Assembly: GCA_942493095.1 (NCBI GenBank)
Contig: OW818675.1
Location: 870,001 to 902,000 of the forward strand
Direction of reading: 5' to 3'
Length of the DNA: 32,000 bases
Source: Candidatus Electronema halotolerans
GTDB taxonomy: Bacteria > Desulfobacterota > Desulfobulbia > Desulfobulbales > Desulfobulbaceae
The position numbers and the translations under genes were made by a program. Within the stretch, counting starts at the first letter, position 1, and each line of letters starts with the position of its first letter. The notes under the pieces were generated by a model. It was not told the origin of the DNA, ran no database searches, and was given only the letters and a program-made list of their open reading frames with translations. Below are positions 7,956 through 28,890 of the stretch, piece by piece.

Positions 7956-7987
7956 AGGCCGCATCGCATTGAGCCGCTGGAAACAGC

Positions 7988-8022: not shown

Positions 8023-8034
8023 TTACGCCATCAA

Positions 8035-9384: not shown

Positions 9385-9474
9385 TTTATCCCTCCTGGTC
9401 AAAAAATCAGAATCAGAACACCGGGAACACGATTCGCTGTTCGCCCGGTAGCTGGTGCTTTGTTATTTAATCGC

Positions 9475-9950: not shown

Positions 9951-9994
9951 GCTATCCTTTTCGATATACTACTCATTCAGAAATACAACGAACA

Positions 9995-10029
9995 GGAATC
10001 AGGCTGAAAACAACTCAACACCTGATTCC
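9995..10029 (-). terminator. Hairpin between acsB stop and the TA cassette (candidate terminator/insulator)
   Basis: There is a 9-bp perfect stem, ggaatcagg (9995-10003) with cctgattcc (10021-10029). On the minus strand it is followed by a T-rich stretch (tgttcgttgtatttctg). Confidence 0.3.
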
Positions 10030-10052
10030 CGTTTTGCATCAGCCAGCAAAAA

Positions 10053-12260
10053 TTACCCCATCGCCGCTTCCATCTCCAGCGCAGGATGGCCCTTTTCCTT
10101 CATAAAGGCCAAGATTTCCTCCTCAGTGGTGCCCTGCTCTTCGGTGGCGATCATGTCGTACAGCTCCGGCATGCCCAAATCAGCGCAGGCGGCCTTCAGC
10201 TTGTCGCTGATCTCGTCCTTCATGATCTTGGGCATCCAGACCATCCGCTTCAAACCGCCTTCAGCCTTGAAGAGCTTCTTGCTAGTCATGAAGTGCTTGG
10301 ACACACCCATGAAACCTGGGGTCTGCATACCGCCGCCCGCCATGCCCGCCAGCGTGGTGAACTTCATGCCGGACGGAGTCATGCCCATGTAGTCGCGGTT
10401 GACAACCATGATGCCGTTGCACTGGGGCAGCATGGCGGCAATAGCCTCAAAGCAGCCGCAGGCGGTCATCGGGTTGTTCATCAGCGAGTAGCAGCTCACC
10501 TCAGTGACTGCGCCGCGTGAGGCCTGATTGACAAAGTCATTGATGCCGGTGAAATAGCCGTTGTCCGGGTCAGTGCATTCGCCCTTTTCAATCGGCTGGT
10601 TCGGGCCAGTCGGGTTGATCTGATACGAAGCCTTGCCGTCTAACCAGTTGTAGGCACCGCACATGCCGATGCGCTCCGGTGTGATCACGCAGACATGACT
10701 GGGCGCAAAGGACTGGCACAGGGTGCAGGAGTAGAAGACCTCTTCGGTTTCGTCGGTCATTGAGCCAAGGCGCAGGTCGCGCTCTTCGTAAACCTGCTTG
10801 GCCAGCTCCATGACCTCTTCGACCTTATCCTGCACTGTGTAGATTTTCACCTGCACCTTGTCGAGGATCGCGCCGAACTCCTGATGCAGCTTGCCGTGCA
10901 ATACCTTGCCGATATGCTTAAAGGAGAAGCCCTTTTCCACCGCGCCCTTGCCGATGCGGATCCACATGATGTTCCGCTGGCCGATGTGCATGATGCCTTG
11001 GACGTAGTTGATCAGATGATGGAACTGACGCTCCAAGATCGGCTCAAAGTCGGACTGCATCTCGCGGCCTGCCACCTCAACCAGAATGGCGATGGGCAGA
11101 TTCTGGCCCTGCTGGATGTCGCTGATGTCCGGGCCTTCGAGAATGATTCTGCCGTCTTCAACCTCGTCCATCTCCTTGGAGATCAGCACTTCCACGCCGG
11201 TGGTGCGACCACCGCCGCATTCCATGTACAGGTCATCCTTACGGATGCGCTCGCCCTCAAAGGCCGGGCCAAAGGACATGGGAATGTCAATTTTGGTCAC
11301 GCTGACCTTGAGGCCGCGCACCTCAATGGCCTTCTGGACAATCTCGTCATGCGGCACCTGCGAGACAACGTGCTCGTAGGTGCAGATGCCGGTCGGCAGC
11401 ACCTGCGGGATGTCGTAGTCGGAGATGGTCGGGAAGCCCCAATTGATCGCCCCGGCAGCGTTGGCATACCACTCATCGCAGACCGGGCCAAAGGCCATGA
11501 CAAAGGCAAAAGTCCGATCTTTATTATAGATCAGGTTGCCCCGGTAATCGCCCGGCTTCACGCCACCAAAGGCCAGAGCCACGCGGCAGGCAAAACCGAT
11601 GGCAAAGACTACTGAAGTGTAGGACTTGCCGAACGGCACCAGCCGGGTATTCCAACCTACTTGGACATCATTTTCCTTGAGCAGCTCGGCCATGTTCTTG
11701 CCGTTGGACTGGTCGTGCATGAAGATATAAAGATTCTTCTCCTGTAGCTCCAAGGCAATCTTGGAGGCGACCTCCTTGTCTTCCGGCGTGCCGACAATGG
11801 CGGCAAAACCAGGGGCGGTGCCGTCAACAAACTCCACGCCGCGCTTGCGGAAGATCACGTCGTCCGCCGCACCCAGCCAGAGGTTCTCCGGCAGCGGGTC
11901 TTCGGTCTTGGTGTAGAAATTCGGCTCATTCAGATAGCGAATGGCCTCGTACATCTCCTCAGCGAAATAAGTGGCCATGCCCGCATCCAAAGCCGGAGCA
12001 AGATAGGGCAGCCAGATGTTGTCGCTGACAATGGCGGGCAGGAGCGTGCGGCATTCTTGGAAAATCTCCTTCATGTCGCCCAGCTTCTCCACCTTGGCGC
12101 CGAGCATCGAATAAATGATCGGCAGATAGTAGGCCGTGTTGGGGAAGGCAACCTCCTGCTCAGGGCCGTACTTCTTCAGGGCCTCCTCGTAGGCGGCCTC
12201 GGCCATATCAACAATGTTATGAGCGCCCCGAATGGCTGCGGAACAGATGATTTTTGACAT
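10053..12260 (-). CDS. acsB: Acetyl-CoA synthase catalytic subunit (AcsB / CdhC-type, A-cluster)
   Basis: The 735-aa product has the A-cluster Cys-Gly-Cys motif (NPMTACGCFEAIA) and a conserved N-terminus (MSKIICSAAIRGAHNIV...FPNTAYYLPIIY). A GGAG RBS lies upstream of ATG 12260. Confidence 0.95.
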   Translation of the reverse strand: MSKIICSAAIRGAHNIVDMAEAAYEEALKKYGPEQEVAFPNTAYYLPIIYSMLGAKVEKLGDMKEIFQECRTLLPAIVSDNIWLPYLAPALDAGMATYFAEEMYEAIRYLNEPNFYTKTEDPLPENLWLGAADDVIFRKRGVEFVDGTAPGFAAIVGTPEDKEVASKIALELQEKNLYIFMHDQSNGKNMAELLKENDVQVGWNTRLVPFGKSYTSVVFAIGFACRVALAFGGVKPGDYRGNLIYNKDRTFAFVMAFGPVCDEWYANAAGAINWGFPTISDYDIPQVLPTGICTYEHVVSQVPHDEIVQKAIEVRGLKVSVTKIDIPMSFGPAFEGERIRKDDLYMECGGGRTTGVEVLISKEMDEVEDGRIILEGPDISDIQQGQNLPIAILVEVAGREMQSDFEPILERQFHHLINYVQGIMHIGQRNIMWIRIGKGAVEKGFSFKHIGKVLHGKLHQEFGAILDKVQVKIYTVQDKVEEVMELAKQVYEERDLRLGSMTDETEEVFYSCTLCQSFAPSHVCVITPERIGMCGAYNWLDGKASYQINPTGPNQPIEKGECTDPDNGYFTGINDFVNQASRGAVTEVSCYSLMNNPMTACGCFEAIAAMLPQCNGIMVVNRDYMGMTPSGMKFTTLAGMAGGGMQTPGFMGVSKHFMTSKKLFKAEGGLKRMVWMPKIMKDEISDKLKAACADLGMPELYDMIATEEQGTTEEEILAFMKEKGHPALEMEAAMG

Positions 12261-12299
12261 TGAGTCAGCTCCTTAGTGTGCGTGCTTGGTTCTGTCCGG

Positions 12300-14927
12300 T
12301 CAGCCGACCAGCCCGTTGATCAGCGACTTGGCCATATTCACCGCCTTGGGATGGCGCATGATCATGACTTCGCCGCCCGCCATCAGCATGCAGGAGGCGG
12401 TGATGGCCTCCATCATGATGCCGCGCCGCTCCTGGTCGCCTATCATCTCGTCAGTGGGCAGGCCGACTTCCTTGGCCTTCCAGACCTCACGGCCCAAGTT
12501 GCAGATGATCGGCACTTGCAGCTTTTCGTCCTTCTGAGTCAGGGCGGCCAAGCGGATGCGCTCCATGACTGAGTAGGTGTACTCAATGCCGTAGCCGAGC
12601 GCGCCGACTGAGGGATCCATCAGCACAGTGTCAAGACCAACGCCGAGGTTTTGCAAGAGGATGTTGAGCTGCTTGGCCAAGTTCACGTCAATCGGCGAAG
12701 CAGCCACCACTGGATAGCGGAAGGCCATTGCGGTTGCGCCGATGGAGCGGTAGTTGCTGTCTTCCAGCGGAGCAAGGCAGACCTGCTTGTCGCCAATCAT
12801 GGAGGTGACTTCGCGCAGGGTCTCGGTGTCCTTGTCCGCATTGCCGCAGCCCCAGACGATCACCGGCACATCCACAGCCTGAATCACCTTGGCCGCATCC
12901 TGCGCCGCATCTTTGGCCGGACGGTTCGCACCATTGGGATCAGTGCCAGCCAGCCAGATGTTGATCGCATCCGCCTTATAAACATCCACGCACTTCTTGG
13001 CCCAAGCTGCCGGGTCGCCCATCACGTCGTCAAAATACTTGCTCAGGGTCGCAGGCCAGTTGTCAGGCTTGATATCCATCACTTCCATTGCGATCAGCGG
13101 CTTGTGCGGCATCTCGCCTTCAAAGAGATGGAACGGCATGGAGGTGGAGCCGCCGACAGTCACGGCCTTGTCACCGCTACCCAAGGTCACTTCCCGGATT
13201 GCCCCGGAGTAGTTCACCTTGTAGCTGGCCGCAGGAACCTTGCTTGCCCGCTCGGCAAAGGGTGCCTCGCCAGTCTTCAGTGCTGGCGCAGCCACATCAG
13301 CCGGAGCTTCTGCCGCAGGCTGGGCCGCTGCTTCAGCAGCCTCTTTCTTGGCCTTTTCTTCGGCCTCAGCTTTTGCTTTCGCATCCGCAGCAGCCTTAGC
13401 TTCCGCCTCGGCTTTGGCCGCAGCTTCTTCTTTGGCTTTTGCCTCAGCAGCCGCCTTGGCAGCGGCTTCAGCCTTAGCTTTTTCCTCTGCTTCAGCTTTA
13501 GCTTTCGCATCAGTAGCTGCTTTTGCCGCTGCCTCTTCCTTGGCCTTGGCCTCTGCGGCAGCCTTTTCTGCCGAATCATCCGCAACCGGCTGGGCTGGCG
13601 CAGCCGGAGCCACCGTCCTCGGTGTGTAGGTTGGCGGTGCCTCGCCCAGCACCTTGGCGGCATTGGCAAAGTTCATCAATGCCTGGAACTGGTCCTCGCT
13701 GAGTCCGTAAGCCTTTTTCAAGGCTTCCAGCCCCTTGTGCATGGACTCCAACGCCATGCGTCGTCCTTGCTCATTCATTTCATGCTCTCCCGCATCGTCT
13801 GCCTGTTCAGCAGGTTGAATCTCTGCCCCAACCTGCGGACGAGGTGCGGCGACGAATGCCTCCGCCTCCTTCCGGGCTGCGGCGATAATCTGTTCAGCCT
13901 CGGCCTTGGCCTGAGCCAGCAGGGCATCGGCAGCATCAGTCCGCACCTCGACGGTTTCTACAGCCGGAGCTGCGGTTTCTGCAATCGGCGCGGCAACGGC
14001 TTCTTCAGCAAAAGCAGGACGGGGCAGCAGACCGGCGCGCTCGCAAATTTCAGCGACAGCCTCCTCCCATTCAATCGCCATGACATGGACACCGGCCACG
14101 CCCGGAATCTCCTTGACCTGATTGATGATATCCACACAGATATTGATGCCTTCCTGCTTCTGATCCTTGGCATCCTGCATCCGCTTGATGACTGCGTCAG
14201 TGACATCCATGCCCGGCACAAACTTCTTCATGTAGCGGGCCATGCCCAAGGACTTGGGCGGGGTAACACCGGCAAGGATGTGCGCCTTCTCGGTCAGGCC
14301 AAGGTCGCGGGCCATTTTCATGAACTCCGCAAACTTGTCAACATTGTAGATGATCTGGGTCTGGATGAAGTCCGCGCCGTTGGCGATCTTCTTGCCCATG
14401 CGCACAGCCCGAAAGTCGAACGGCCAAGCAAAGGGATTGGCTGCCGCGCCAAGGAACAGTTCCGGCGCCTTGCCCTTCAGTGCCTCGCCGCACTGGAACT
14501 TTTTGCCGTCGCGCAAGTCCCGCATCATGCCAAGGAGCTGAATCGAGTCCATGTCGAACACGCCCTTTGCTCCGGGATGATTGCCGAACTTCTGGTGATC
14601 GCCGGTCAGACAGAGGAGATTCTTCAGGCCAAGGGCTGCGGCGGCCAAGATGTCGGACTGCATGCCGATTCGGTTGCGGTCCCGACAGGTCATCTGAATG
14701 ACCGGTTCCACGCCCTCGGCCTGAGCTAGCAGCCCCGCGCCAATGGACGACATGCGGACAATTGCGGTCTGGCAGTCAGTGATATTGACCGCATCCACTT
14801 TGCCCTTCAGTATTCGCGCCTTGGCCCGGACCACCTCCGGGTCACTGTTTTTGGGCGGCCCCAGTTCGCCGGTGACAGCGAACTGACCGCTGCGGAGCAC
14901 CCGCTCCAAATTGCTCCCCGATTTCAT
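12300..14927 (-). CDS. metF/acsD: Fusion protein: N-terminal methylenetetrahydrofolate reductase (MetF-like), long Ala/Lys/Glu-rich linker, C-terminal corrinoid Fe-S protein small subunit (AcsD/CdhD-like)
   Basis: The first ~300 aa (FAVTGELGPPK...VNITDCQTAIVRMSS...IQMTCRDRNR...LCLTGDHQ...GAAANPF...FIQTQIIYN) look like acetogen-type MetF. The last ~310 aa (REVTLGSG...MPFHLFEG...PLIAMEV...VWGCGNADKD...VLMDPSVGALGYGIEYTYSVMERIRLAAL) look like AcsD. It is a single uninterrupted frame. I chose ATG 14927, preceded by GAGGAGGA; the track start at 14930 is a TTG. Confidence 0.85.
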   Translation of the reverse strand: MKSGSNLERVLRSGQFAVTGELGPPKNSDPEVVRAKARILKGKVDAVNITDCQTAIVRMSSIGAGLLAQAEGVEPVIQMTCRDRNRIGMQSDILAAAALGLKNLLCLTGDHQKFGNHPGAKGVFDMDSIQLLGMMRDLRDGKKFQCGEALKGKAPELFLGAAANPFAWPFDFRAVRMGKKIANGADFIQTQIIYNVDKFAEFMKMARDLGLTEKAHILAGVTPPKSLGMARYMKKFVPGMDVTDAVIKRMQDAKDQKQEGINICVDIINQVKEIPGVAGVHVMAIEWEEAVAEICERAGLLPRPAFAEEAVAAPIAETAAPAVETVEVRTDAADALLAQAKAEAEQIIAAARKEAEAFVAAPRPQVGAEIQPAEQADDAGEHEMNEQGRRMALESMHKGLEALKKAYGLSEDQFQALMNFANAAKVLGEAPPTYTPRTVAPAAPAQPVADDSAEKAAAEAKAKEEAAAKAATDAKAKAEAEEKAKAEAAAKAAAEAKAKEEAAAKAEAEAKAAADAKAKAEAEEKAKKEAAEAAAQPAAEAPADVAAPALKTGEAPFAERASKVPAASYKVNYSGAIREVTLGSGDKAVTVGGSTSMPFHLFEGEMPHKPLIAMEVMDIKPDNWPATLSKYFDDVMGDPAAWAKKCVDVYKADAINIWLAGTDPNGANRPAKDAAQDAAKVIQAVDVPVIVWGCGNADKDTETLREVTSMIGDKQVCLAPLEDSNYRSIGATAMAFRYPVVAASPIDVNLAKQLNILLQNLGVGLDTVLMDPSVGALGYGIEYTYSVMERIRLAALTQKDEKLQVPIICNLGREVWKAKEVGLPTDEMIGDQERRGIMMEAITASCMLMAGGEVMIMRHPKAVNMAKSLINGLVG
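13325..13575 (-). repeat. In-frame coding tandem repeat (126-nt / 42-aa period) encoding the AKE-rich linker
   Basis: gctttcgcatc recurs at 13375 and 13501, 126 nt apart. The protein motif DAKAKAEAEEKAK recurs 42 residues apart within ...AEAKAKEEAAAKAATDAKAKAEAEEKAKAEAAAKAAAEAKAKEEAAAKAEAEAKAAADAKAKAEAEEKAKKEAAE... Confidence 0.8.
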
Positions 14928-15018
14928 CAATCCTCCTCGCCTGACCCGCCGCTGGGGCAGATCGTTATATTCTTCAAATTTTCTGTCAATTCTGGTGAAG
15001 GGGCTGGCCGAATCGCCT

Positions 15019-15156
15019 GTAGGGGCGAACCCCTGTGTTCGCCCTTTTTCCGGCCCGGAACAAGCAAGACACGGGGGGCTGCCCCTACGTGTTCATGAAC
15101 CGAATCGCCGGATCGACTTCGCGCATCCGTAGGGGCAATTCATGAATTGCCCCTAC
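15019..15156. repeat. Cluster of REP-like elements built on the octamer GTAGGGGC, ending in a perfect 28-nt palindrome
   Basis: GTAGGGGC is at 15019-15026 and its complement GCCCCTAC is at 15081-15088. The perfect palindrome GTAGGGGCAATTCATGAATTGCCCCTAC is at 15129-15156. A hairpin, gggcgaac (15023-15030) with gttcgccc (15037-15044), is followed by ttttt. ccgaatcgcc is repeated at 15009 and 15100. Confidence 0.65.
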
Positions 15157-15186
15157 GCATTACGAATCATCGGCAAAATCCGCCTG

Positions 15187-17178
15187 TCAATGCTTGCCGC
15201 CGCCGCAGCCCATGCCGCCAATGCCCTTGCCCGCCTCGATTTCACGGCGCATGGCCATATCCATCAGCACGCGCTCTTTCTTCTTGTTGATGCCGAGAGC
15301 CTCGCGCTTCTCCTCAATGGCATCAATCATGGCTTTGGCAATGGCTTCTGGCTCTTCAGCCACGCCCCAGCAGGCCCCGTACTCCTCTTTCAATCCTTTG
15401 AGGATGAAGTCAGAAAACTTCTTGGCCCCGCTGATCGGCAGATTCTGGAAGATGACATGCGCGCCGCTGGTGACAAAATACTGGCCAATAGCCACCGCCT
15501 TTTCGCTCATCCAGAGCGGAGCCGAGCCAACCGCAGGCAGCTCGGAAATGTCATCACCAAGGCCGCCTTCATGCACCATTTCAGTCAGGGCGATGAGCAG
15601 ACGGGAGTTATCGACACAGGAGCCGACATGCAGAACTGGCGGCATGCCCACGGTCTCGCAGACCTCGCGCAGGGTCTCGCCAGCGTATTCAGTGGCTGCC
15701 TCCGGGCGCATCAGACCACGACGGCCAAGTGCTTGGGCCGCGCAGCCGGTGGCCAGGACCAGGACGTTGTTCTTGATCAGCTCAACCGCAATCTTGAAAT
15801 GCACATCATCTGAATGCTTATAGTGCTCGCAGCCGACCAGCGCAGCCACGCCCCGGATGCGGCCATTGATGATGTTGTCGTTGAGCGGACGGTAGGACTG
15901 CCGGAAACGGCCACCGAGCATGTAGTTGATGGTCTCGTGCGAGAAGCCGACCACCACGTCAAACTTCTTGTCCTTGGGAATGTAATACGGCCCGCGCTTC
16001 TTGAAATTGCCGATGGCGTGGGTGAGAATCTTCTTGGCCGAGGCATAGGCATCATGCTCGTCAAACTGGATGTGAATGGCATCCGGCATCATGGCCCGGT
16101 AGTTGGTGGTGATGATGTCAGTGTGCTTTTCCTTGGCCACTTGCCCCACAGACTGCATCACGCACTGGACATCAACCACCATTGCCTCGACCGCGCCGGT
16201 TGCCAGCACCATCTCCTGCTGAATGAAAGAACCTGCCACCGGAATGCCCCGGCGCATCAGAATCTCGTTGCCAGTGCAGCAGACACCAGCCAAGTTGATG
16301 CCTACGGCCCCGGCCTTCTTGGCCAAAGCCAGCAGCTCCTCATCCTCAGCAGCCAGACAGAGCGACTCAGCCAAGAGCGGTTCATGGCCATGCACAGTGA
16401 CATTGACCATGTCCTCGCGCAGCACGCCAAGGTCAATCAGCGCCCGCTTGGGCACTGGTGTGCCGAACATGATGTCGGTCAGCTCGGTGGAGAGCATGGA
16501 CGAACCCCAGCCGTCTGCCAAGGAGCAGCGGGCGGCCTGACGCATGATGTTGTGGTATTCCTGATCCACGCCAATATGGGTGCGGTGCATAACCTCAACC
16601 ACTTCGCGGTCAACACCACGCGGCTCCACGCCTTTTTCCTTCCAGATGGCCTGCTGCTTCTTGGGAGCGCGCTTGAGCATGGTCAGGGTGCCGTCCTGCT
16701 GGCCGAACTCGGCCAAGGCGCGCTCGCCCAGCTCAAGAGCGATTTCGTTTTTGTCCCGACCCTCGGTCTCAATGCCGAAAAGCGCGGCCATCTTGTGCAG
16801 CTTGGCCACATCTTTGATCTCGTGCGGGGTCTCGCCCTTGGCTGTGGCAATGAAGCCGCGCACCATCTCGCGGGCATGGTCTGTATGGGCTGCTGCGCCT
16901 GCGGCCACAGCGCGGGCAAAGTTGCGGGCTGCGACGGTGTCAGCAGTGGCCCCGCAGATGCCGACCATGCTTTCCACGCCATCAATGATCTGGCACGGCC
17001 CCATGTTGCAGTTCTTGCAGCAGGTGCCCTGCGAGCCAAAGAGGCAGGCGGACATGCCCCGCTCTTCCAAGCGGGTGTAGGCGGTGCGGACTTTCTTGGC
17101 TAAATCCTGACTGAGCAGCTCGCGGGTGGAGCTGCTGGTGATCTCGTTGCTGCTGGCAATGCGGCTGGGCTTGGCCAT
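15187..17178 (-). CDS. cooS: Ni-dependent carbon monoxide dehydrogenase catalytic subunit (CooS/AcsA)
   Basis: The 663-aa product has an N-terminal Cys cluster, CLFGSQGTCCKNCNMGPCQI, and conserved blocks (VTVHGHEP, GVCCTGNE, HVGSCVDNSR). A GGAGAGGAG RBS lies upstream of ATG 17178. Confidence 0.95.
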   Translation of the reverse strand: MAKPSRIASSNEITSSSTRELLSQDLAKKVRTAYTRLEERGMSACLFGSQGTCCKNCNMGPCQIIDGVESMVGICGATADTVAARNFARAVAAGAAAHTDHAREMVRGFIATAKGETPHEIKDVAKLHKMAALFGIETEGRDKNEIALELGERALAEFGQQDGTLTMLKRAPKKQQAIWKEKGVEPRGVDREVVEVMHRTHIGVDQEYHNIMRQAARCSLADGWGSSMLSTELTDIMFGTPVPKRALIDLGVLREDMVNVTVHGHEPLLAESLCLAAEDEELLALAKKAGAVGINLAGVCCTGNEILMRRGIPVAGSFIQQEMVLATGAVEAMVVDVQCVMQSVGQVAKEKHTDIITTNYRAMMPDAIHIQFDEHDAYASAKKILTHAIGNFKKRGPYYIPKDKKFDVVVGFSHETINYMLGGRFRQSYRPLNDNIINGRIRGVAALVGCEHYKHSDDVHFKIAVELIKNNVLVLATGCAAQALGRRGLMRPEAATEYAGETLREVCETVGMPPVLHVGSCVDNSRLLIALTEMVHEGGLGDDISELPAVGSAPLWMSEKAVAIGQYFVTSGAHVIFQNLPISGAKKFSDFILKGLKEEYGACWGVAEEPEAIAKAMIDAIEEKREALGINKKKERVLMDMAMRREIEAGKGIGGMGCGGGKH

Positions 17179-17220
17179 AATTCAAACTCTCCTCTCCTGA
17201 GTGAAAATGTTGCGAAAAAC

Positions 17221-18108
17221 TTAGGCCAGCCCGGCAAACTGCTTTGCCGACTGCACCGTATTCTTCATCAGCATGGTGATGGTCATTGGCCCAACTCCAC
17301 CCGGCACCGGGGTGATCGCGGCAGCCTTCTCTTTGACCGAGGCAAATTCCACGTCACCGGCCAATTTGGCTTTGCCGGATTCCGTCACGCCAATCCGGTT
17401 GACCCCGACATCAATCACCACCACGCCCTCTTTGACCTGATCCGCCTTGATCATGTTGGCGACACCAGCGGCCACGATGAGAATGTCAGCCCGCTTGGTG
17501 TGAAAATCCGTGTCCTTGGTCCGGGTGTGGCAGAGGGTGACAGTGGCATTGCCTGCATCCCGCTTCTGAAGCATCAGGTTAGCGACCGGCTTGCCGACAA
17601 TGTTGGAGCGGCCCACGACCACCACCTCAGCCCCGGAGGTTTCCACGCCGCTGCGCTTGAGCAGCTCCAGCACGCCATGCGGCGTGCAGGGCAGGAAGCA
17701 TTTCTCACCCAGCACCATCCGGCCCACGTTCATCGGATGAAAGCCATCCACGTCCTTGTCCGGGTTGATGGCGTTCAAAACTTTGGCCTCATCAATTTGT
17801 TTGGGCAGCGGGAGCTGAACCAGAATGCCGTGAATTTTCGGATCGTTGTTATGTTTTTCCACCAGAGCCAGTAGATCAGCCTCAGCAGTGTCCGCAGGCA
17901 GTGTGACCTGCTCGGAATGAATGCCCAAGGCATGGGCGGTCTTGTTTTTGGCAGCCACATAGGACTGGGAGGCGGGATCCTCGCCCACCAGAATGGTGAC
18001 CAAGCCGGGCACGACATTGTGCTTTGCCGCCAGCTCGGCAACCTCAGCCTTCAGCTCCTCGCGGATTTCTTTTGCAACTTCAGTGCCGCTGATAATTTTT
18101 GCGCTCAT
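17221..18108 (-). CDS. folD: Bifunctional methylene-THF dehydrogenase / methenyl-THF cyclohydrolase
   Basis: The product MSAKIISGTEVAKEIREELK...PGLVTILVGEDPASQSYV...GILVQLPLP...VVVVGRSNIVGKP...PVPGGVGPMTI is typical FolD. I chose ATG 18108 (295 aa). The track's 18225 start adds 39 non-FolD residues. Confidence 0.9.
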   Translation of the reverse strand: MSAKIISGTEVAKEIREELKAEVAELAAKHNVVPGLVTILVGEDPASQSYVAAKNKTAHALGIHSEQVTLPADTAEADLLALVEKHNNDPKIHGILVQLPLPKQIDEAKVLNAINPDKDVDGFHPMNVGRMVLGEKCFLPCTPHGVLELLKRSGVETSGAEVVVVGRSNIVGKPVANLMLQKRDAGNATVTLCHTRTKDTDFHTKRADILIVAAGVANMIKADQVKEGVVVIDVGVNRIGVTESGKAKLAGDVEFASVKEKAAAITPVPGGVGPMTITMLMKNTVQSAKQFAGLA

Positions 18109-18426
18109 GACTGCTCCTGAAAAAAATATATATTCAGCCGGTCCCGCAGCCTGCTCATGCAAAGCAGACCGGCAGACTGCAGGGGCCGCCGGCTGGATGG
18201 AATCATGTCTCTGACTGACGAACAAGAATGGTATGATAACAGGTTATGCCTATTTTTTTCAACCTAAATCCTTGCCGCGACCCGCGTCAGCGGCGTTTTC
18301 TTCATTTTTGTGATGATCATGATGGGAAGCGTTTGAGAAAACGCTCGCAAGCGGTGCAGACGGCAGATTGCGGCAAAAGACCGCAATCCCGAAATGTTGG
18401 CTGGACCTGCCGGGTGAAATGAGCTG

Positions 18427-19242
18427 TCAGGAAGAATGCTGCCGGGCAATATGACTGAACATCTGCACCAGGCCGAGACTGAGGGAAAAGCCCATCTGCG
18501 GCGGGAGATTGGTGCCGCAGCAGGCGTCAAAGAGGATGGTCAGCGAGGAATCCAAGCCGTCTTCCGCAGCCTGCCAGCATAAGAGCAGGGGGAAGTGCGG
18601 CAGCGGATGGAGAACCAAGGCCAAATCCGCGTCAAAGCCGGAAACTGGCTCGCCCATGAACAGGTCGGCCAAGTCTTGCAGCAGGCCGGGATGCTGATCG
18701 GCCAAGTCTTGCAGCAGGTTTTCGCAGCGGCTGGCAAAAAGATTCCGCCGCTCCATGCCGCCTGGCAGATCGCGGAAATTGAGCCAGCGGCCTGTGACCG
18801 CCTGATGCTGGGGATTGGCGATATAGGCAAGCAAAGGAGCCTTGACCCAAGGAATGAGATGGCATTCGGAATGCACTTGTCCCTGCTGGTCAACAGCAAA
18901 TTCCTTGCCCAGCAGCTTGAGCGCCAGTCTGCCGCCTGCGGCATCTTCTCTGAACACGCCGCCAAGACGCGGAGCAAGTTCAGGCAAGTTCAGCCCGGAG
19001 ATTTTTTGCTCCAGCCCGCTCAGGTCCTTGACAAACTGGTACAGTTCCTGACCTGCGCCGCCTTTGGCACTGGCGGCAAGACGCGCCCTGCTCGGCTCAT
19101 CCAGCAGCGGGCAGTCAGCCAGTATTTTCTGGCCAGCACTCACGGCTGCGGCAAAGGCGAGACAGGAAGGTAGCTGGCAGCGACCGCAGTTGCTCTTTGC
19201 CAGTGCCTTGTAAATGTCCAAGGGTTTAAGAATGCCAGACAT
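18427..19242 (-). CDS. Fe-S-binding protein with AcsC-like N-terminal Cys motif and DUF3786-like C-terminal region
   Basis: The N-terminus LAKSNCGRCQLPSCLAFAAAVSAGQKILADCP closely parallels the AcsC N-terminus (KSNCGKCGIPTCLAFAMKVAAGQAEIAACP). I chose ATG 19242 (MSGILKPLDIYK...). The DUF3786 assignment is from memory of acs-cluster neighbours and is not verified. Confidence 0.65.
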   Translation of the reverse strand: MSGILKPLDIYKALAKSNCGRCQLPSCLAFAAAVSAGQKILADCPLLDEPSRARLAASAKGGAGQELYQFVKDLSGLEQKISGLNLPELAPRLGGVFREDAAGGRLALKLLGKEFAVDQQGQVHSECHLIPWVKAPLLAYIANPQHQAVTGRWLNFRDLPGGMERRNLFASRCENLLQDLADQHPGLLQDLADLFMGEPVSGFDADLALVLHPLPHFPLLLCWQAAEDGLDSSLTILFDACCGTNLPPQMGFSLSLGLVQMFSHIARQHSS

Positions 19243-19304
19243 GCAGAAATGGTGAGAGAAAGGAAGGCGGAGCCGCACAGGATGCAGTGCGGCTCCGGTG
19301 GCTG

Positions 19305-21763: not shown

Positions 21764-22330
21764 TTACTGGATTGCGTTGCAGGAGATGGATTGCAGCAGT
21801 TCCTCCACTTCCGCCTCAGTATCCAGCCGCCGCAGCAGCTCCGGCGGCAGCTCATCAGGCTGGGCAAAGCTCTCCCGCTGGCGGACAAAAATCTCCCAGC
21901 GGCCATCCGAAACCGCGTTCGGGTCTTTGGCCCGCAGTTCAAGACGGCGTTTAGTCTCCTCTTCTGAGCAGGAACAGAGAACAAAGAGCGGCCTTGCACC
22001 CAATCGCTCCGCCAAATGCCTCACCTCACTGCGGCCAGCAGTGACGCTGTAGGAACCATCCAAGATCACCCCTGACGCACCCTGTTGCAAAGCCTTTTCA
22101 GCCCGGTCCAGCAGGGCCTGATAGGTCTTTGCGGTCAGCTCCGGGCTGTAAATGCCCTCACCCATTCCTGCCGGACGGCGGTCAGTGGCGGCAATGCCTG
22201 CCAGCTCCTTGCGCACCCGGTCGGAATTGAAATAGGGCAGATCGCGCTCAACGGCAAAACGTTCGGCCAAGAAGGATTTGCCAGAAGCAATCAGACCGAA
22301 AAAAATATAGATTATCGGTTCAGCCGACAT
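21764..22330 (-). CDS. P-loop kinase-like ATPase (AAA_33-type)
   Basis: Walker A is FFGLIASGKSFLAERF in a 188-aa product. Its start overlaps the stop of the upstream phosphotransferase gene by 11 nt. Confidence 0.7.
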   Translation of the reverse strand: MSAEPIIYIFFGLIASGKSFLAERFAVERDLPYFNSDRVRKELAGIAATDRRPAGMGEGIYSPELTAKTYQALLDRAEKALQQGASGVILDGSYSVTAGRSEVRHLAERLGARPLFVLCSCSEEETKRRLELRAKDPNAVSDGRWEIFVRQRESFAQPDELPPELLRRLDTEAEVEELLQSISCNAIQ

Positions 22331-23330
22331 ACGTCTCTGCTAAAGCAAAATATTTGGCTGCCGCTTCAGTGCAGCTTGTCCGCACCGCCTCATCAACTGC
22401 TGGATCGCCTGCGGTGAACAGGCCGATCTTGCCGCGCACATAAGCCCGGTAGCACTTGTAGAAATTGAGCATCTCCTTCAGGCCGCTGTCGTCGGCAAGC
22501 TGGCTGAAGCGGTCCATGCAGTATTCGGACAGCTCGCGCAGGCCGTGGAAATCCAAGTCCATAGCAAGAAAGGCCACATCGCTGGCCACATCGCAGCAGC
22601 GGAACCGCTGGTTGAACTCAATGCAGTCAAAGATATACACCTTGTCGCCAAAGCAGATGTTGGCGGAATACAAATCGCCGTGGCAGTCGCGGATGCGGCC
22701 TTCGGAAATGCGCTGCTGGAAGCGTTCCTCTTGGGCAAGAAAATCTTTTGACCACGCTGAGATGCGGTCAAACTGCTCCTGGCTCAACGCGCCTTGACCG
22801 ATGAAGCCTTCAGTCTGGGCAAAGTTCTCCAGAATGTTGATTGCCACCTTATCAGCCTGACCAAAGCTGTCAATTTCCGCGTTGCGCTCGGCCTGCTGAT
22901 AAAAGGGAATCAGCCGCTCAACAATCGCATCAATCTGCTCGCGGCCCAGTTTGCCCGCCTTGATCAGATTGCCCATCATGCCTTCCTCCGGCATCCGAGC
23001 CATTTTCACGCCGTACTCAACGACCTCGCCGCTGCCGTTCAGGGCAAAGCCGTCGCCCTCCTTGTTCAGCGTGATCACCTCCAGATAAATCTCCGGGCAG
23101 AGGCGGCGGTTGAGCAGCAGCTCCTGTTCGCAGCAGTGCTGCCGCTTGTCTAAGGTGGAGAAGTCGAGAAAGCCGAAATTAACCGGCTTCTTAAATTTAT
23201 AGACAAAATCGCCCGCAATGAGGACAAAGGAAATATGAGTCTGTACGAGCTGCACATCCGCAGCGGCATGAGAATAGATTTCCGGGCGCAGCAGTGCTTG
23301 GATGAAGCTGGGCAGATTGCTGTCAGTCAT
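22320..23330 (-). CDS. Aminoglycoside-phosphotransferase-fold (APH/choline-kinase-like) protein kinase-like enzyme
   Basis: The catalytic loop is CHGDLYSANI (HxDxxxxN), followed by IFDCIEF. I chose ATG 23330 (MTDSNLPSF...), which has GGAG 6 nt upstream. Such genes are often found paired or fused with a P-loop ATPase; that point is from memory. Confidence 0.7.
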   Translation of the reverse strand: MTDSNLPSFIQALLRPEIYSHAAADVQLVQTHISFVLIAGDFVYKFKKPVNFGFLDFSTLDKRQHCCEQELLLNRRLCPEIYLEVITLNKEGDGFALNGSGEVVEYGVKMARMPEEGMMGNLIKAGKLGREQIDAIVERLIPFYQQAERNAEIDSFGQADKVAINILENFAQTEGFIGQGALSQEQFDRISAWSKDFLAQEERFQQRISEGRIRDCHGDLYSANICFGDKVYIFDCIEFNQRFRCCDVASDVAFLAMDLDFHGLRELSEYCMDRFSQLADDSGLKEMLNFYKCYRAYVRGKIGLFTAGDPAVDEAVRTSCTEAAAKYFALAETYVG

Positions 23331-23517
23331 GAATTGCTCCTTGTGGTTGTGCTCCGGCCTATACAGGCAGGGCCGGAATTGCATTGTTGCTGGGGCATCG
23401 TGCGCTTTCCGCTCCTGCTCCCAGCTTGCTTGGTCAGGCCAAGATACGGCCCAGCCTGTGTTTTGTCAATAAAATAACCCAACTTGACAGCTATTGCGCA
23501 ACAAAATCAGATGGTAG

Positions 23518-23767: not shown

Positions 23768-24826
23768 ATGAATAATTTTACACAGGACATAGTGAGATCA
23801 ATGAAAAGAGCAATTATTTTAGACCCGAAGATGCGTGCAGAATTTGTTCATCGATTCGATGAGATAAATGTAGAGTATGTTAAGCGGGTCGATAGGCTGC
23901 GAACCGTTAGACTTGAACCTCGCATATTACCCTATACCAAGGATAGGATGAAAGAACTCATAGATAAATTGCATAAAGACGAAAATATGCCTCTTGATGC
24001 TGCGACGGCGCAAATCATGGAACGGTTTGCTCGACCGGCATATTTTGTTCAGGACGATTCTTTTGACACACGGAATACCCCGTCAACCTCGGAGTTGATA
24101 GACAACACGGTGAATAAGGCCAAGAGCTTGATTGAGAAAGCTCTTCCCAGTGTCGGTCGTATCAACCTGCGCAACCACAGATTATCCTGGGTCGGGACCG
24201 GATGGGTAATTGCGGAAAACATCTTGGTCACGAATCGGCATGTAGCAACCGAGTTTGCCGGACATGAGGGAGATAGTTTTGTTTTTATCAGAACAGCAGG
24301 GCAGACCGCCAAGGCCGAATTAGACACTGTCCGTGAATACAAGTCCCAGAAAGAAAAGCTCTATAAAATTCGCAAGGTGCTGTGGATTGCCCCTCCAAGT
24401 TTTGAGCATGATATAGCATTCCTGTCAATAGATAAAGAATCAAATTATAATAATCCGCAGCCGCCCCCGATTGATCTGATGGATATAAGCAGCTTTGAAG
24501 ATATTCCGAACGATCATTGGATCGCCGTGATCGGATATCCCGGCAGGAGTTCCGATGATATTACAGACCAGCAACTCATCTTTGATGGTATTTATGATGT
24601 CAAACGAATACAACCCGGTCAGATAAAGGCAAAAAACAGTGCTGCCGGTATAGTGGAGCATGATGCATCAACTTTGAATGGCAACTCCGGGTCGGTGGTG
24701 CTCGACCTCACTTCCGGCAAAGCCATCGGACTTCATTTCCTCGGCATACTGGGGGAAAGGAGAATCAACAAAGCTGTGGCCGCACCTGTCATCAGGGAAC
24801 TGCTCTATAAGCATGTCCTCAGTTAA
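23768..24826 (+). CDS. Cytoplasmic-looking trypsin-like (chymotrypsin-fold, Trypsin_2-type) serine protease with ~90-aa N-terminal helical module (352 aa)
   Basis: The catalytic triad context is WVGTGWVIAENILVTNRHVA (His), EHDIAFLSI (Asp) and LNGNSGSVVLD (Ser). There is no N-terminal hydrophobic signal sequence. GGAG lies 4 nt upstream of the ATG. The coding sequence is AT-rich. Confidence 0.8.
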   Translation: MNNFTQDIVRSMKRAIILDPKMRAEFVHRFDEINVEYVKRVDRLRTVRLEPRILPYTKDRMKELIDKLHKDENMPLDAATAQIMERFARPAYFVQDDSFDTRNTPSTSELIDNTVNKAKSLIEKALPSVGRINLRNHRLSWVGTGWVIAENILVTNRHVATEFAGHEGDSFVFIRTAGQTAKAELDTVREYKSQKEKLYKIRKVLWIAPPSFEHDIAFLSIDKESNYNNPQPPPIDLMDISSFEDIPNDHWIAVIGYPGRSSDDITDQQLIFDGIYDVKRIQPGQIKAKNSAAGIVEHDASTLNGNSGSVVLDLTSGKAIGLHFLGILGERRINKAVAAPVIRELLYKHVLS

Positions 24827-24899: not shown

Positions 24900-27074
24900 A
24901 TGGACAGCAATCTTATTTTTTCAGACCCTAAGATGCGTGAAGAATTCCTTGATCGTTTCGACGACCTACGCAACGAGTTTCTTGCTCGTACACCTCTCAG
25001 TGAGGACGAAAAGAAGGAATTGGAAGCTCACACCAAAGATGATGCCGACAAGGCTGTGAAAATCGTCAAAGAAGGTCTCAGTACCCCTGTATCCAAAGTA
25101 CTGGAGGCGATTATCATTCGATATGGTCGCCCGGCGTATTTTGTTCAGAATGACTCGTTCAATACGGATAATACGCCCTCGACGGCTGACAAAGTTGACC
25201 AAACAGTCAATAAGGACAGAGCTGTGATTGAGAAAGCCATTCCGAGTGTTGGCCGCATCAACTTGCGCAATCATAGAATGCCTTGGGTCGGCACCGGCTG
25301 GGTAGTTGCAGAAAATGTCCTTGTAACAAACCGCCATGTGGCAGCCGAATTCGCTAGGGAAAGAAATGGAAATTTTGTCTTTGTTGGCAACACCAAGGCC
25401 AGCTTGGATACCGTCCAAGAATACGATGCGGGTGGCAGAGAGAAGATGTATCGTCTTCAAAAGGTGCTGTGGATCGCTCCGCCCGACGGGGAACATGACG
25501 TGGCATTTCTGTCCATCGATAAAAAATCAAACTATGATGATCATCCGCAGCCCACCCCGATTGAGTTGATGGATCAGAAGGCGTTTGCCGCTTTATCCGT
25601 CAAACATTGGATTGCCGTGATCGGATATCCGGCCTTGAGTCCCTATAACGACCATGCGGATCAGCAGCGTATCTTTGATGGAGTTTTTAATGTCAAGAGG
25701 ATGCAGCCTGGTCAGATCATGGCAATACCTCGCGGCATGAGTGCAGTGGAGCACGATGCGACAACATTAGGCGGTAATTCGGGATCGGTCGTCCTTGATC
25801 TTGAAACGGGCAAGGCCTTGGCACTGCATTTTGGTGGCATCGAAGGAAAAAGCAACAGTGCTGTGGCGGCTCCTGTTGTTTCAGAACTGCTGGATAAGCA
25901 TATATTCGGTCTCAGACGACAAGTTTTTCCTGTTACGACACCACCATCTCAAGACTCGAAAGGTGAATCTCCGTCTTGCCAAGAGAGCTGTGCTGTATCA
26001 ACAGGTGGTACGGCAACTTGGAAGATACCGCTTGAAGTATCAGTGACTGTGGGAACTCCTGCGATGGTTTCCGCCGACGCTGGCACGTCAACTGCTCCAA
26101 GTGCTCCCAAAACTTCGGCAGCGTCTCTCAAGGCTTCTACAGCTATCAAGGAAGGTCTGTTCGGTAAGCGATCACCCGACTTTTCCCTTGATGAGCTAAG
26201 GGAGATGTTTTCCTTGTCTGCTCTAACAGAAAACGAATTCAACTGGAATACGGCCTTATCGTTAGCTGTCGCAAGCGAGCTTGCATATAGAAGCAAATCA
26301 GTTGTTGAGCGCACGGCGGCAGAATGGGGACTCAGTGCATGCAGATTTATAGACCAAGAGGAAACTCAATGTTTTATCGCCTCCCATGAAGGCAGTGTGC
26401 TGGTTTCTTTCCGAGGTTCCGAGAGCTTGGGTGATTGGCTGGCCAATATGAACGTTTTTACAGTCAAAAGGGAGTATGGAGATGTACATGAAGGCTTTTA
26501 TAACGGCTTTGCCGACGTACGGGAGATGCTAGAGGAAGAACTTGAGCGACGCTCGCCCGATCAAGTTCTGCTTACCGGTCACAGTCTCGGAGGAGCCTTG
26601 GCGACAATCGCAGCAGCGGAATGGAATGACAAATACACCATAGGTAGTGTTTACACCTTCGGTCAGCCTGCTGTCGGGAAAGAAGACTTTGAAGAGTTTT
26701 TCAGAAGCAAATTCTTCAGGACGAATTACAGCGATAAGTTCTTTAGATTCGTCAATGATGACGATATGGTCACACGCCTGCCTCCCCTGTACCGACATCT
26801 CGAAAAACTCTATCATTTCGACACAGGAAGCGAATTGACGACTCGAACTGAGTCTGTCTCAGGTATGGCGGCGACGACGGGCGAGCCGAAGATGATGTCG
26901 GAGAAAGAATTTACCAACCTTCAGTTGCTCATGAGGAGAACTGGCAGAGGAGATGCCGCTATTATCACTGAATCAGTTGACCGCCCTGTTTTGGAAGGAT
27001 TTTTTCCGAGTGTAAGCGATCATAGCTTAAACGAATATATCAGAAAGATTAAAAGCAGAATTTCTGCTTCGTAA
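24900..27074 (+). CDS. Fusion: paralogous trypsin-like serine protease, Ser/Thr/Pro/Ala linker, class-3 (Lipase_3) alpha/beta-hydrolase lipase domain (724 aa)
   Basis: The protease triad is VTNRHVA, EHDVAFLSI and LGGNSGSVVLD (Ser codon 25779-25781). The lipase nucleophile elbow is LLTGHSLGGALA (Ser codon 26583-26585), with VNDDDMVTRLP (Asp) and SDHSLNEYI (His). I chose ATG 24900, with GGAGGAG 6 nt upstream. The track start at 24885 is a TTG. Confidence 0.85.
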   Translation: MDSNLIFSDPKMREEFLDRFDDLRNEFLARTPLSEDEKKELEAHTKDDADKAVKIVKEGLSTPVSKVLEAIIIRYGRPAYFVQNDSFNTDNTPSTADKVDQTVNKDRAVIEKAIPSVGRINLRNHRMPWVGTGWVVAENVLVTNRHVAAEFARERNGNFVFVGNTKASLDTVQEYDAGGREKMYRLQKVLWIAPPDGEHDVAFLSIDKKSNYDDHPQPTPIELMDQKAFAALSVKHWIAVIGYPALSPYNDHADQQRIFDGVFNVKRMQPGQIMAIPRGMSAVEHDATTLGGNSGSVVLDLETGKALALHFGGIEGKSNSAVAAPVVSELLDKHIFGLRRQVFPVTTPPSQDSKGESPSCQESCAVSTGGTATWKIPLEVSVTVGTPAMVSADAGTSTAPSAPKTSAASLKASTAIKEGLFGKRSPDFSLDELREMFSLSALTENEFNWNTALSLAVASELAYRSKSVVERTAAEWGLSACRFIDQEETQCFIASHEGSVLVSFRGSESLGDWLANMNVFTVKREYGDVHEGFYNGFADVREMLEEELERRSPDQVLLTGHSLGGALATIAAAEWNDKYTIGSVYTFGQPAVGKEDFEEFFRSKFFRTNYSDKFFRFVNDDDMVTRLPPLYRHLEKLYHFDTGSELTTRTESVSGMAATTGEPKMMSEKEFTNLQLLMRRTGRGDAAIITESVDRPVLEGFFPSVSDHSLNEYIRKIKSRISAS

Positions 27075-27195: not shown

Positions 27196-28890
27196 TCATT
27201 CTTGCTTCTGAGCCTTCTCCCAGCTGTCCCGCAAGGTGACAATCCGATTAAAGACCGGCCTGCCGGGTTGGCTTTCCTTGCTGTCCAAGCAGAAATAACC
27301 CTGCCGCTCGAACTGGAAGCGGTCGTCCAGCGTTGCCGCGCTCAGAGAAGGCTCGACAATGCTGTTCTTGAGCACGTTGCAGGAATCAGGGTTGATGAAT
27401 TCCTTAAAGTCACGCTCCTTGTCCGCATCCGGGCTTTCCACGCTGAATAGGCGGTCATAGAGACGGAGTTCTGCCAAGATGCCGTGCCGGGCGGAAACCC
27501 AGTGGATGGTGCCTTTGACCTTGCGTCCGTCCGGGGCCGAGCCGCCGCTGCTGGCTGGATCGTATGTGCAATGCAGCTCAACGACCTCGCCGTTCTCATT
27601 CTTGACCGCCTTCTGACAGGTGATCAGATAGGCATAGCGCAGGCGCACCTCGCGGCCCTCTGATAGACGGAAGAACTTTTTAGGCGCGTTCTCCATGAAG
27701 TCAGCGCGCTCCACATAAATTTCCCGGCAGAAGGGCAGCTTGCGGGTGCCCATGTCCGGGTTCTGCGGGTGATTCTGTCCCTCAAACTCCTCTGTCTTGT
27801 CTTCCGGGTAATTGGTGATGATTACCTTGAGCGGCTCCAAAACTCCCATCACCCTGGGCGCATGGATGTTGAGATCATCGCGGACAGCATTTTCCAAGAC
27901 ACCCATGTCAATCCACGATTCCCGCTTGCCCACGCCGACTGTGGCGCAGAAGCTGCGGATTGAGGCGGGCGTGTAGCCACGCCGACGCAGGCCGGAAATG
28001 GTCAGCATCCGGGGGTCATCCCAACCATCCACATACTTCTCATTGACTAATTGCAGGAGTTTGCGCTTGCTCATCACCGTGTAGCTGATGTTCAGGCGGG
28101 CGAACTCGTACTGGCGCGGGTGACAGGGCGTGTTCAGGGTGTCCAAGACCCAGTCGTACAAAGCGCGGTTGTTCTCAAACTCCAAGGTGCAGATGGAGTG
28201 GGTGATGCCCTCAATCATATCCGAAAGGCAGTGGCAGAAATCGTACATCGGGTAGATGCACCATTTGTCGCCGGTGCGGTGATGGTGCTTCTTCATGATC
28301 CGGTAGATGGCCGGGTCGCGCATGATGATGTAGGGCGAGGCCATGTCGATCTTGGCCCGCAGCGTGCAGGTTCCTTCTGCCAGCTCACCGTTGCGCATCT
28401 GGGCGAACAGGGCAAGATTCTCTTCCACCGAACGATTGCGGTACGGGCTTTCCTTGCCCGGCTCAGTCAAGGTGCCGCGATACTCGCGCATCTCCTCGCC
28501 GCTCAGGTGGCAGATATATGCCTTGCCCAGTTTGATGAGCTGGACGGCAAAATCGTGGAGCTGGTCGAAATAGTCTGAGGCATAATAGCGATGCTCGCCC
28601 CAGTCAAAGCCGAGCCAGCGCACGTCCCGCTGGATGGATTCAACGTACTCAACCGATTCCTTGCTGGGGTTGGTGTCGTCAAAGCGCAGGTGGCAGACCC
28701 CGTTGTTCTCCTTGGCAATGCCGAAGTTCAGGCAGATGGACTTGGCATGGCCGATGTGCAGGAAGCCGTTCGGCTCCGGCGGGAAGCGGGTGACGATTTT
28801 CGTGTGCTTGCCAGTGGCAAGGTCTTCGGCAACAATCTGCCGGATGAAATCAAGGGGCTTGTCAGGGGAGCTGGAGGTTTCAGCAGTCAT
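27196..28890 (-). CDS. glnS: Glutaminyl-tRNA synthetase
   Basis: The HIGH motif is [14 protein letters not shown] and the KMSKS-type motif is VMSKRKL. The length (564 aa) and conserved blocks ([15 protein letters not shown]...[10 protein letters not shown]) are typical of GlnRS. Confidence 0.95.

Follow-up and report, generated by a model that had tools for sequence, protein, structure and literature searches.

A protease–linker–lipase fusion in a cable bacterium: a candidate protease-controlled effector of a proposed two-gene conflict module

What use might a bacterium have for a protease and a lipase joined in a single polypeptide? The question is raised by a 32,000-nucleotide stretch of the genome of the cable bacterium Candidatus Electronema halotolerans (Desulfobulbaceae; assembly GCA_942493095.1, contig OW818675.1, positions 870,001–902,000 of the forward strand), which we refer to as the window. 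It contains two tandem genes, the first encoding a stand-alone trypsin-like protease and the second a related protease followed by a linker and a class-3 lipase. The 724-residue product of this second gene, the fusion, is 100% identical to the NCBI hypothetical protein GCAAIG_04140. In our view, the two genes may constitute a conflict module that acts in the cytoplasm, in defence or programmed death, and deploys a latent lipase by proteolysis, an interpretation that we hold to have slightly better than an even chance of being correct. Control of the lipase by a protease, considered separately, appears well supported by comparison of the sequences described below.

A sequence-only reading of this DNA had proposed that the fusion joins a trypsin-like domain to a class-3 lipase domain with its characteristic motifs, and profile searches, catalytic residues and structural matches all agree with these assignments. 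Trypsin_2 (PF13365) matches residues 131–309 with 54.1 bits (Pfam cut-off 27.6) and Lipase_3 (PF01764) matches residues 502–630 with 89.9 bits (cut-off 22). Alignment of 21 homologous fusions shows His146, Asp200 and Ser296 of the protease to be invariant and in the canonical His-Asp-Ser order, and this triad is kept in at least 97% of 239 relatives. In the lipase, G-H-S562-L-G and Asp622 (NDDD-MV) are likewise invariant, and His708 (SDH) is at least 90% conserved. On the basis of these residues the fused protease is probably catalytically competent and the lipase looks active. The open reading frame, which ends at 27074, has two possible starts on the forward strand, TTG 24885 and ATG 24900, with a sequence resembling a ribosome-binding site (GGAGG) 8 nucleotides upstream of the latter.

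AlphaFold2 predictions of the full-length fusion gave a mean predicted local distance difference test score (pLDDT) of 73 and a predicted template-modelling score of 0.50 when 21 sequences were used, and values of 82.7 and 0.64, respectively, with 68 sequences. The confident parts are residues 1–339, comprising a helical N-terminal region and the protease barrels, and residues 421–724, the lipase. The protease domain has pLDDT values of about 90–98 and its double β-barrel fold is supported by Foldseek, whose matches to the fusion in the PDB were limited to protease and lipase folds. The best matches of the protease are the staphylococcal S1B enzymes Esp, SplA/B/D and V8 (template-modelling score on target 0.69–0.76, E ~2e-11), and those of the lipase are the Rhizomucor and Thermomyces class-3 lipases (1TGL, 5AP9 and 3TGL; E ~3e-11 to 8e-11) and a feruloyl esterase. 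Within the lipase, confidence is low for residues 653–657 and 683–699; the latter stretch is an insertion carrying conserved T-E691-S and L-E699-G-F-F-P-S elements just ahead of the catalytic histidine.

Both window proteases share a helical region of 116 residues, conserved across the family, in front of the protease domain; we refer to the helical region and protease together as module A. In the fusion, helices are predicted at residues 10–30, 35–42, 46–58, 66–76 and 97–116 (pLDDT 88–97). The region holds a conserved L-E69-A-I...R77-P78 element and leads into I-P-S-V-G118-R119-I, and residues Glu69, Arg77, Pro78, Gly118 and Arg119 are retained in at least 96% of the 239 relatives. It matched no Pfam, NCBIfam or PADLOC family and Foldseek gave no assignment either. 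The closest solved structures to the protease are those of the staphylococcal S1B group (V8/GluV8, Esp and SplA–F), which are made as zymogens from which an N-terminal propeptide must be removed (cf. the titles of PDB entries 6U1B and 6Q24). The window protease too has an N-terminal extension and, by likeness to these zymogens, its helices are possibly a pro-region or regulatory region. However, the sequence identity between the two groups is only about 20%, and the staphylococcal enzymes are secreted and have short propeptides, whereas the window protease has a conserved 116-residue helical region and no signal peptide.

The sequence-only reading had also placed a stand-alone paralogue of the protease immediately upstream, and the comparison bears this out. 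The upstream protein is 56% identical to residues 6–336 of the fusion, matches Trypsin_2 with 59.7 bits and Trypsin (PF00089) with 35.3 bits (cut-off 20.6), and has an intact triad (His158, Asp215 and Ser309). It consists of the helical region and the protease domain, with no linker motif and no effector. At the DNA level the tandem relation is visible as blocks of 71–83% nucleotide identity about 1090–1100 nucleotides apart. We considered whether the upstream gene might be a private duplicate and rejected this, as it is 54–60% identical to other protease-only proteins compared with 56% to the fusion. The protease-only subfamily has 642 homologues at E ≤ 0.001, with an intact triad and, among the matches listed, a median length of 336 residues.

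The segment between the two domains of the fusion had been described as a low-complexity linker of about 90 residues. Its length (88 residues), its Ser/Thr/Pro/Ala-rich composition and its disorder agree with that description, but it is not featureless, as it holds a conserved tag, spacers and an EGLFG motif. Ser, Thr, Pro, Ala and Gly make up 58% of the linker compared with 32% of the rest of the fusion, the pLDDT is about 31–42 in both AlphaFold2 runs and residues 340–420 are without secondary structure. Among homologues the linker ranges from 42 to 133 residues. No Pfam, NCBIfam or PADLOC family was found for the linker or for the small neighbouring open reading frames, and there were no Trypco or Pepco matches.

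The tag is about 17 residues long, and its sequence in the window is given as TATWKIPLEVSVTVG / TATWKIPLEVSVTVGTP. The consensus of 145 distinct instances is [ST]-[VA]-T-[WF]-T-I-P-L-x-[IV]-[ST]-V-[ST]-[LVI]-G; the instances were anchored on the proline, which is hence invariant among the 145 that were kept. In the 21 fusions five residues in low-confidence segments are at least 90% conserved, namely Pro377 and Val382 of the tag together with Glu418, Glu691 and Glu699, so that three of the five are glutamates. The alignment and the AlphaFold2 models together place the tag, E418-G, Glu691 and E699-G all within disordered segments. The lipase module begins with the E418-G-L-F-G motif, which is a candidate processing site, and an EG.F consensus is also present in 22 stand-alone tagged lipases.

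A hidden Markov model of the tag, applied to the proteins of our first search, showed that nearly all lipase fusions carry it, as do PLD fusions and some fusions to the nuclease NucA (Endonuclease_NS); in the same set it was absent from protease-only proteins. A later search found it in 59 of 89 longer fusions, mostly to NucA. It occurs in a NucA fusion on the Agrobacterium pTi plasmid, in a Pararhizobium PLD protein, in a fusion of Endonuclease_1 to a different type of trypsin (locus L010) and in a lipase fused to a third type (L015). Stand-alone lipases (318–404 residues) also carry the tag: in at least 20 cluster representatives it lies within the first ~40 residues, and the spacing from it to GHSLG is constant at about 180–195 residues. 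At least six further protease clusters carry it near the C-terminus and have no effector. The lipase seems best described as a tagged 'pro-lipase' cassette which in the fusion is joined to a protease.

The fused architecture is itself recurrent. A homology search gave about 45 clusters at 90% identity that combine Trypsin_2 and Lipase_3, and an exhaustive search of 1.84 billion representatives gave roughly 50 clusters at 50% identity with the same architecture among the best 150 matches. Of the 120 top-ranking homologues of the window fusion, the majority are fusions of Trypsin_2 to NucA. Other C-terminal partners of module A are PLDc_2, Peptidase_M10, Peptidase_M74, Evf and a TPR-S domain with a second trypsin, and the lipase and NucA are also found together with module A in one protein. 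On conjugative plasmids of the Rhizobiales, including pTi, fusions of module A to NucA or PLD lie beside S8 peptidases and a CHAT protein. The toxic payload is thus swappable, which is typical of conflict systems and is one ground for reading the window module as such. Scans with generic lipase peptide patterns returned mostly ordinary stand-alone lipases from genomes and from metagenomes, with two and one near-full-length loci, respectively, among the matches listed; phage records gave lipase-domain matches only. We also note a metagenomic protein of 974 residues (P0052) in which the order is lipase, protease, NucA; it has no tag, and the segment separating its lipase from its protease contains three R-[SR]-L-E-S repeats.

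Comparison of the individual parts indicates a mosaic origin. The window lipase is 78% and the linker 57% identical to those of a homologous fusion, P0005, whereas the protease of P0005 is only 30% identical; the protease of the window fusion is 62–65% identical to protease-only proteins. These differing identities suggest that the tagged pro-lipase moves as a unit. One lipase lineage is shared by fusions of two module-A subfamilies, the fused protease of L015 belongs to a third trypsin type, and stand-alone tagged lipases are found in protease operons (L010 and L095). Such recurrent, independent association of lipase and protease argues for a lipase that is functionally dependent on a protease. 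The L010 locus (Maioricimonas sp. JC845, 3643–7080) comprises the tagged fusion of Trypsin_2 to Endonuclease_1 and, divergent to it, a tagged stand-alone lipase, and hence shows the same tag on two different effectors in one locus.

Taken together, these observations suggest the following scheme. The second gene would encode a V8/Spl-like protease and a pro-lipase cassette made up of the tag, a spacer, the EGLFG motif and the class-3 lipase. The lipase would be kept latent until a proteolytic step in cis or in trans, which might be carried out by the protease of the fusion itself, by its protease-only paralogue upstream or by a protease that is linked to a sensor and encoded at another site. 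The tag would serve as a recognition or coupling element, and the freed or activated lipase would attack membrane lipids and so kill or disable the cell. The parts of this scheme that we infer are the latency of the lipase, the occurrence and position of a cut, the trigger, the lipid attacked and the biological role. A role of the tag in recognition or cleavage is consistent with its location, as it is found ahead of effector folds that are unrelated to one another, in disordered sequence and always between protease and effector. The nearest solved proteases include Glu-specific enzymes.

The tag also invites a different explanation, in which each of the two enzymes is an end effector in its own right and the tag is a homotypic β-strand mini-adaptor, possibly amyloid-like, that would gather proteases and effectors, fused or separately encoded, in a higher-order assembly and act by induced proximity with no cleavage needed. 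We regard this as a minority possibility. The evidence that bears on it most directly comes from the L095 operon, which encodes a 410-residue module-A protease, an EAD1-trypsin, two EAD1 proteins, two unknown proteins, a tagged lipase (P0271) and an nSTAND1 NTPase. The module-A protease ends in ...AAVTFTIPLQISVTLGSPVLGRQS (motif part ...AAVTFTIPLQISVTLGS) and the stand-alone lipase begins with MSQLQPSVANAAVTFTIPLQISVTLGVPV (motif part ...AAVTFTIPLQISVTLGV). The two tags are identical at 15–16 of 16 residues, a likeness reached by only 0.2% of random pairs of tag instances, and the two coding sequences for these 16 residues differ by about 11 synonymous changes. The synonymous sites have thus diverged while the peptide is unchanged, which speaks against recent copying. 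The protease clusters that carry a C-terminal tag and no effector fit this explanation, as does the β-type alternating pattern of the tag inside a disordered region, and paired short motifs on adjacent genes are a hallmark of BASS motifs (Dyrka et al. preprint; Bab/Agp) and the principle of EAD domains. On the other hand, the strong match comes from this one locus. For L010, 20% of random pairs are at least as alike as its tag pair, and matched pairs are therefore unsupported as a general rule. Fused proteins hold a single copy of the tag, with no second copy elsewhere in the window; AlphaFold2 predicts no structure for it; and its composition, with an invariant proline, a conserved leucine and few Asn or Gln residues, is unlike that of BASS motifs. 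Coupling would moreover be compatible with cleavage as well. We therefore treat homotypic coupling by the tag as a lead that comes mainly from L095. A bolder form of the idea, which we consider doubtful, is that the tag is a new portable 'effector tag', a self-matching β-strand that would couple lipase, PLD, NucA and Endonuclease I effectors to trypsin-like proteases, whether fused or separate, and nucleate an assembly, amyloid-like or based on induced proximity, within which the effectors would be cut and set free.

Returning to deployment of the lipase by proteolysis, several observations weigh against it. The sequence-only reading had proposed that a protease gates the lipase and had looked to AlphaFold for an occluded active site. 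Of this proposal, gating draws support from the recurrent association of protease and lipase and from the zymogen logic found in the literature, but the occlusion did not appear: both runs modelled the two domains confidently and left the linker disordered, and neither gave a confident sign of the protease or linker occluding or docking on the lipase, although this is a weak negative from two runs judged without coordinates or predicted aligned errors. The tag, like the rest of the linker, is predicted to be disordered. In L095 one copy of the tag ends the protease and another opens the lipase, an arrangement that fits coupling at least as well as cleavage. The correspondence between V8-like specificity for glutamate and the conserved glutamates of the fusion is only a resemblance. 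The lipase domain has no PADLOC match. Finally, the 32-kb window contains no STAND, MoxR, vWA, VMAP or partner B gene (the last a protease family described below), and no recognisable sensor domain was found in it by Pfam, PADLOC or the scan of open reading frames.

The neighbourhoods of relatives are richer. In six of nine full-length protease–lipase loci the fusion lies near 'partner B', a second, distinct trypsin-like family with variable C-terminal regions, which is often fused to VMAP-C and is a different family from the fused protease. As partner B is the usual neighbouring protease, trans-cleavage by the upstream paralogue is only one of the options. In L004 (Bradyrhizobium barranii, 5850–18232) the fusion is followed, in this order, by a partner-B–VMAP-C protein, a MoxR AAA_5 protein, a 1129-residue S8 peptidase and a fusion of the protease to PLD, and the locus adjoins an integrase; two differently armed module-A proteins are thus present within one system. 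Protease-only relatives occur as tandem pairs, ahead of partner B, or ahead of genes for a 740-residue trypsin protein, MoxR and a 1140-residue FGE-sulfatase protein; they also occur beside EAD1-trypsin, MoxR, vWA and S8 genes, and in L091 and L092 they are next to MoxR with FGS or vWA. S8 peptidase, EAD1 or STAND components, which occur in the related loci L004, L092, L093 and L095, are absent from the window. Downstream of the fusion in L008 there are three tandem partner B genes (6500–9998), the N-terminal protease parts of which are 78–99% identical and the C-terminal parts unrelated; this looks like a diversifying sensor or regulatory end. In L012 (1586–3391) and L090 (2293–6228), which are unrelated loci, tyrosinase and multicopper oxidase genes lie next to tagged lipase or protease-only genes.

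An origin outside the cytoplasmic conflict systems should also be considered. The fusion might be exported as a toxin or digestive enzyme, in the manner of polymorphic toxins, its N-terminal part directing export, its protease acting as a release domain and its lipase striking other cells or extracellular substrates. The interchangeable C-terminal domains of the family (nuclease, PLD, lipase, the murein endopeptidase M74, matrixin and Evf) do recall such toxins, and the nearest solved proteases are secreted staphylococcal enzymes. However, neither window protein has a signal peptide or transmembrane segment, the maximum Kyte–Doolittle value (19 residues) being 1.3 and the N-terminus acidic, and the N-terminal region, matching no Pfam or NCBIfam family, contains no recognised trafficking domain. 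There are no secretion-system genes in the window and no immunity gene downstream, where 121 nucleotides separate the fusion from the convergent glutaminyl-tRNA synthetase gene with no open reading frame between them. Relatives, moreover, are found in cytoplasmic MoxR/vWA/STAND/EAD1 loci, and we consider export unlikely. Among the defence families of PADLOC the protease module matched the 'nacht' model PDLC03010 (E 4.6e-20), RT-Protease_XI and PDC-M35A. No Endonuclease_NS was found in either gene or in the other open reading frames of the window that were scanned.

The immediate surroundings bear on a further alternative, that the fusion is a housekeeping enzyme of lipid or protein turnover formed by a neutral accident of tandem genes. 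The cassette is flanked by a kinase-like gene pair and by the glutaminyl-tRNA synthetase gene, with a Wood–Ljungdahl cluster nearby, and genes of the latter two kinds are indeed housekeeping genes. Nevertheless, the G+C content of the cassette is 0.46–0.49 compared with 0.55–0.6 in the flanks, relatives are sporadic across phyla and include plasmid-borne and integrase-adjacent examples, the domains are modular and swappable, and the roughly 50 clusters noted above keep not only the architecture but also the conserved linker tag. A housekeeping role seems to us very improbable, and the two-gene module was probably acquired horizontally.

The positions of the two genes and of the parts of the fusion are collected in Table 1.

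Table 1. Positions of the two genes and of the parts of the fusion within the window
Feature	Residues	Nucleotides	Strand	Basis or remark
Stand-alone ('A-only') trypsin-like protease	352 from first ATG	23768..24826	+	NCBI start 23801, 341 residues
Protease–linker–lipase fusion gene	724 plus stop	24900..27074	+	Open reading frame scan, Pfam, NCBI match, ribosome-binding site
N-terminal helical extension	1–116	24900..25247	+	AlphaFold2 helices; residue conservation
Trypsin-like (S1, V8/Spl-like) protease domain	117–337	25248..25910	+	Pfam, alignments, Foldseek
Protease catalytic residues	H146; D200; S296	25335–25337; 25497–25499; 25785–25787	+	Alignment
Disordered S/T/P/A-rich linker	338–425 (88)	25911..26174	+	AlphaFold2, composition
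Conserved linker tag, 'motif 1', GGTATWKIPLEVSVTVGT	~369–386	26004..26057	+	Alignment, hidden Markov model
E418-G-L-F-G motif at start of lipase module		26151..26165	+	Conservation
Class-3 lipase domain	426–724	26175..27071	+	Pfam, alignment, AlphaFold2, Foldseek
Lipase nucleophile S562; D622; H708	S562; D622; H708	26583–26585; 26763–26765; 27021–27023	+	Alignment

Several further observations were made in the window. A perfect 16-nucleotide direct repeat, CTCAACGACCTCGCCG, is present at 23016–23031 and 27577–27592, inside the genes that flank the low-G+C island, and its copies lie about 370–380 nucleotides from the island-facing ends of these genes. Each copy encodes GEVVE on the minus strand. 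The repeat is probably a coincidence, its copies being within conserved genes and encoding the same pentapeptide. Scans for promoters and terminators gave results at chance level. The flanking pair at 21764–23384 (minus strand) consists of an AAA_33 kinase-like gene (188 residues) overlapping a gene for a 354-residue protein without a Pfam match which, from its HGDLYSANI sequence, looks like a kinase of the aminoglycoside phosphotransferase type. At 3573–7955 (plus strand) a 1460-residue protein combines the SF1 helicase domains AAA_11 and AAA_12 with a C-terminal REase_MTES_1575 nuclease-like domain and is possibly a defence or repair helicase-nuclease. The Wood–Ljungdahl cluster occupies 8035–19278 (minus strand) and comprises CdhD, the ACS/CODH β subunit, an 876-residue MTHFR–CdhD fusion (12300–14930), Prismane/CODH, FolD and DUF3786.

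Were the proposed deployment of the lipase by proteolysis to prove correct, trypsin-effector conflict systems, described by comparative genomics with a nuclease payload, would gain a payload directed at membranes, and the two genes would offer a compact model that joins protease, cleavable or coupling tag and effector in a single chain. The tag would be a handle that can be mutated, could account for the recognition of many unrelated effectors by a single protease family and might be used as a query for new ones. If it proves to be self-matching, it would add a third kind of adaptor to bacterial immunity beside the EAD/Death-like domains and the BASS motifs. Electronema and Thioploca are filamentous, and in cable bacteria we may speculate that a protease-gated lipase is a candidate for sacrificing single infected or damaged cells within a filament.

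Among known systems, the closest counterpart is the 'NucA-peptidase' System 3 of Kaur et al. (2020, eLife, PMC7159879), a computational study which predicts that a proteolytic cascade deploys NucA in a trypsin–NucA arrangement. The same protease module as that of the window is fused to NucA in its relatives, including those on Rhizobiales plasmids. In both cases protease and effector are fused or several protease copies occur per operon, the window having two tandem module-A genes, and the S8 peptidases, EAD1-trypsins and STAND NTPases of the known system are present in loci of window relatives. The hosts of both are multicellular, with relatives of the window genes in Electronema and Thioploca. 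The window differs in that its payload is Lipase_3 rather than NucA, lipases not being mentioned in that article; in that it consists of two genes only, with no accessory components; and in its linker tag which, with the tagged stand-alone effectors, is not mentioned in the available part of the text. The best-supported description from the sequence data is that the window module would be a lipase-bearing variant of the NucA-peptidase conflict system. Relatives of both window genes are also embedded in the vWA–MoxR–VMAP ternary systems of the same authors (L004, L091 and L092), but no MoxR, vWA or VMAP gene accompanies the pair here.

Zymogen logic has been shown experimentally for other effectors, those of anti-phage systems. 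Evans et al. (2025, bioRxiv, PMC12642450) describe MBL nucleases, Pepco and EACC1 pore-formers and an α/β-hydrolase as zymogens that become active when cut at specific sites; in the hydrolase a caspase-like protease makes two cuts at R|G, which remove an inhibitory fragment, and the sensors are interchangeable. Huang et al. (2025, bioRxiv, 10.1101/2025.09.03.673762) likewise describe a trypsin–MBL module activated by double cleavage. The likeness lies in the conserved pairing of a protease with a death effector, as the window lipase cassette too recurs with proteases. However, in those systems the effectors are separate proteins cut by sensor-fused caspase-like or trypsin-like proteases, whereas the window protein is one chain; its hydrolase is Lipase_3 and its conserved sites (the tag and E-G) are different. 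A fused trypsin–Lipase_3 protein is not covered in the available parts of either report.

The tag, finally, may be compared with the BASS motifs, which as described in the preprint of Dyrka et al. (2020) are about 25 residues long, rich in Asn, Gln, Gly, Val and Ile and depleted in Pro, Leu and Lys. As in the Bab–Agp pairs (Ibarlosa et al., 2024, preprint), L095 has a short β-prone motif that ends one protein and opens another encoded in the same operon, and BASS motifs too belong to multicellular bacteria and can be attached to α/β-hydrolase effectors. The tag is nevertheless shorter, at about 17 residues, and its 145 instances contain 6.9% Pro, 9% Leu, 1.3% Asn and 3.4% Gln; its partners are proteases rather than NLRs, and it occurs singly in fused proteins. 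The design of the window module is thus known in outline. What appears to be new, compared with the available parts of these publications, is chiefly the tag, both conserved and portable, together with the lipase payload.

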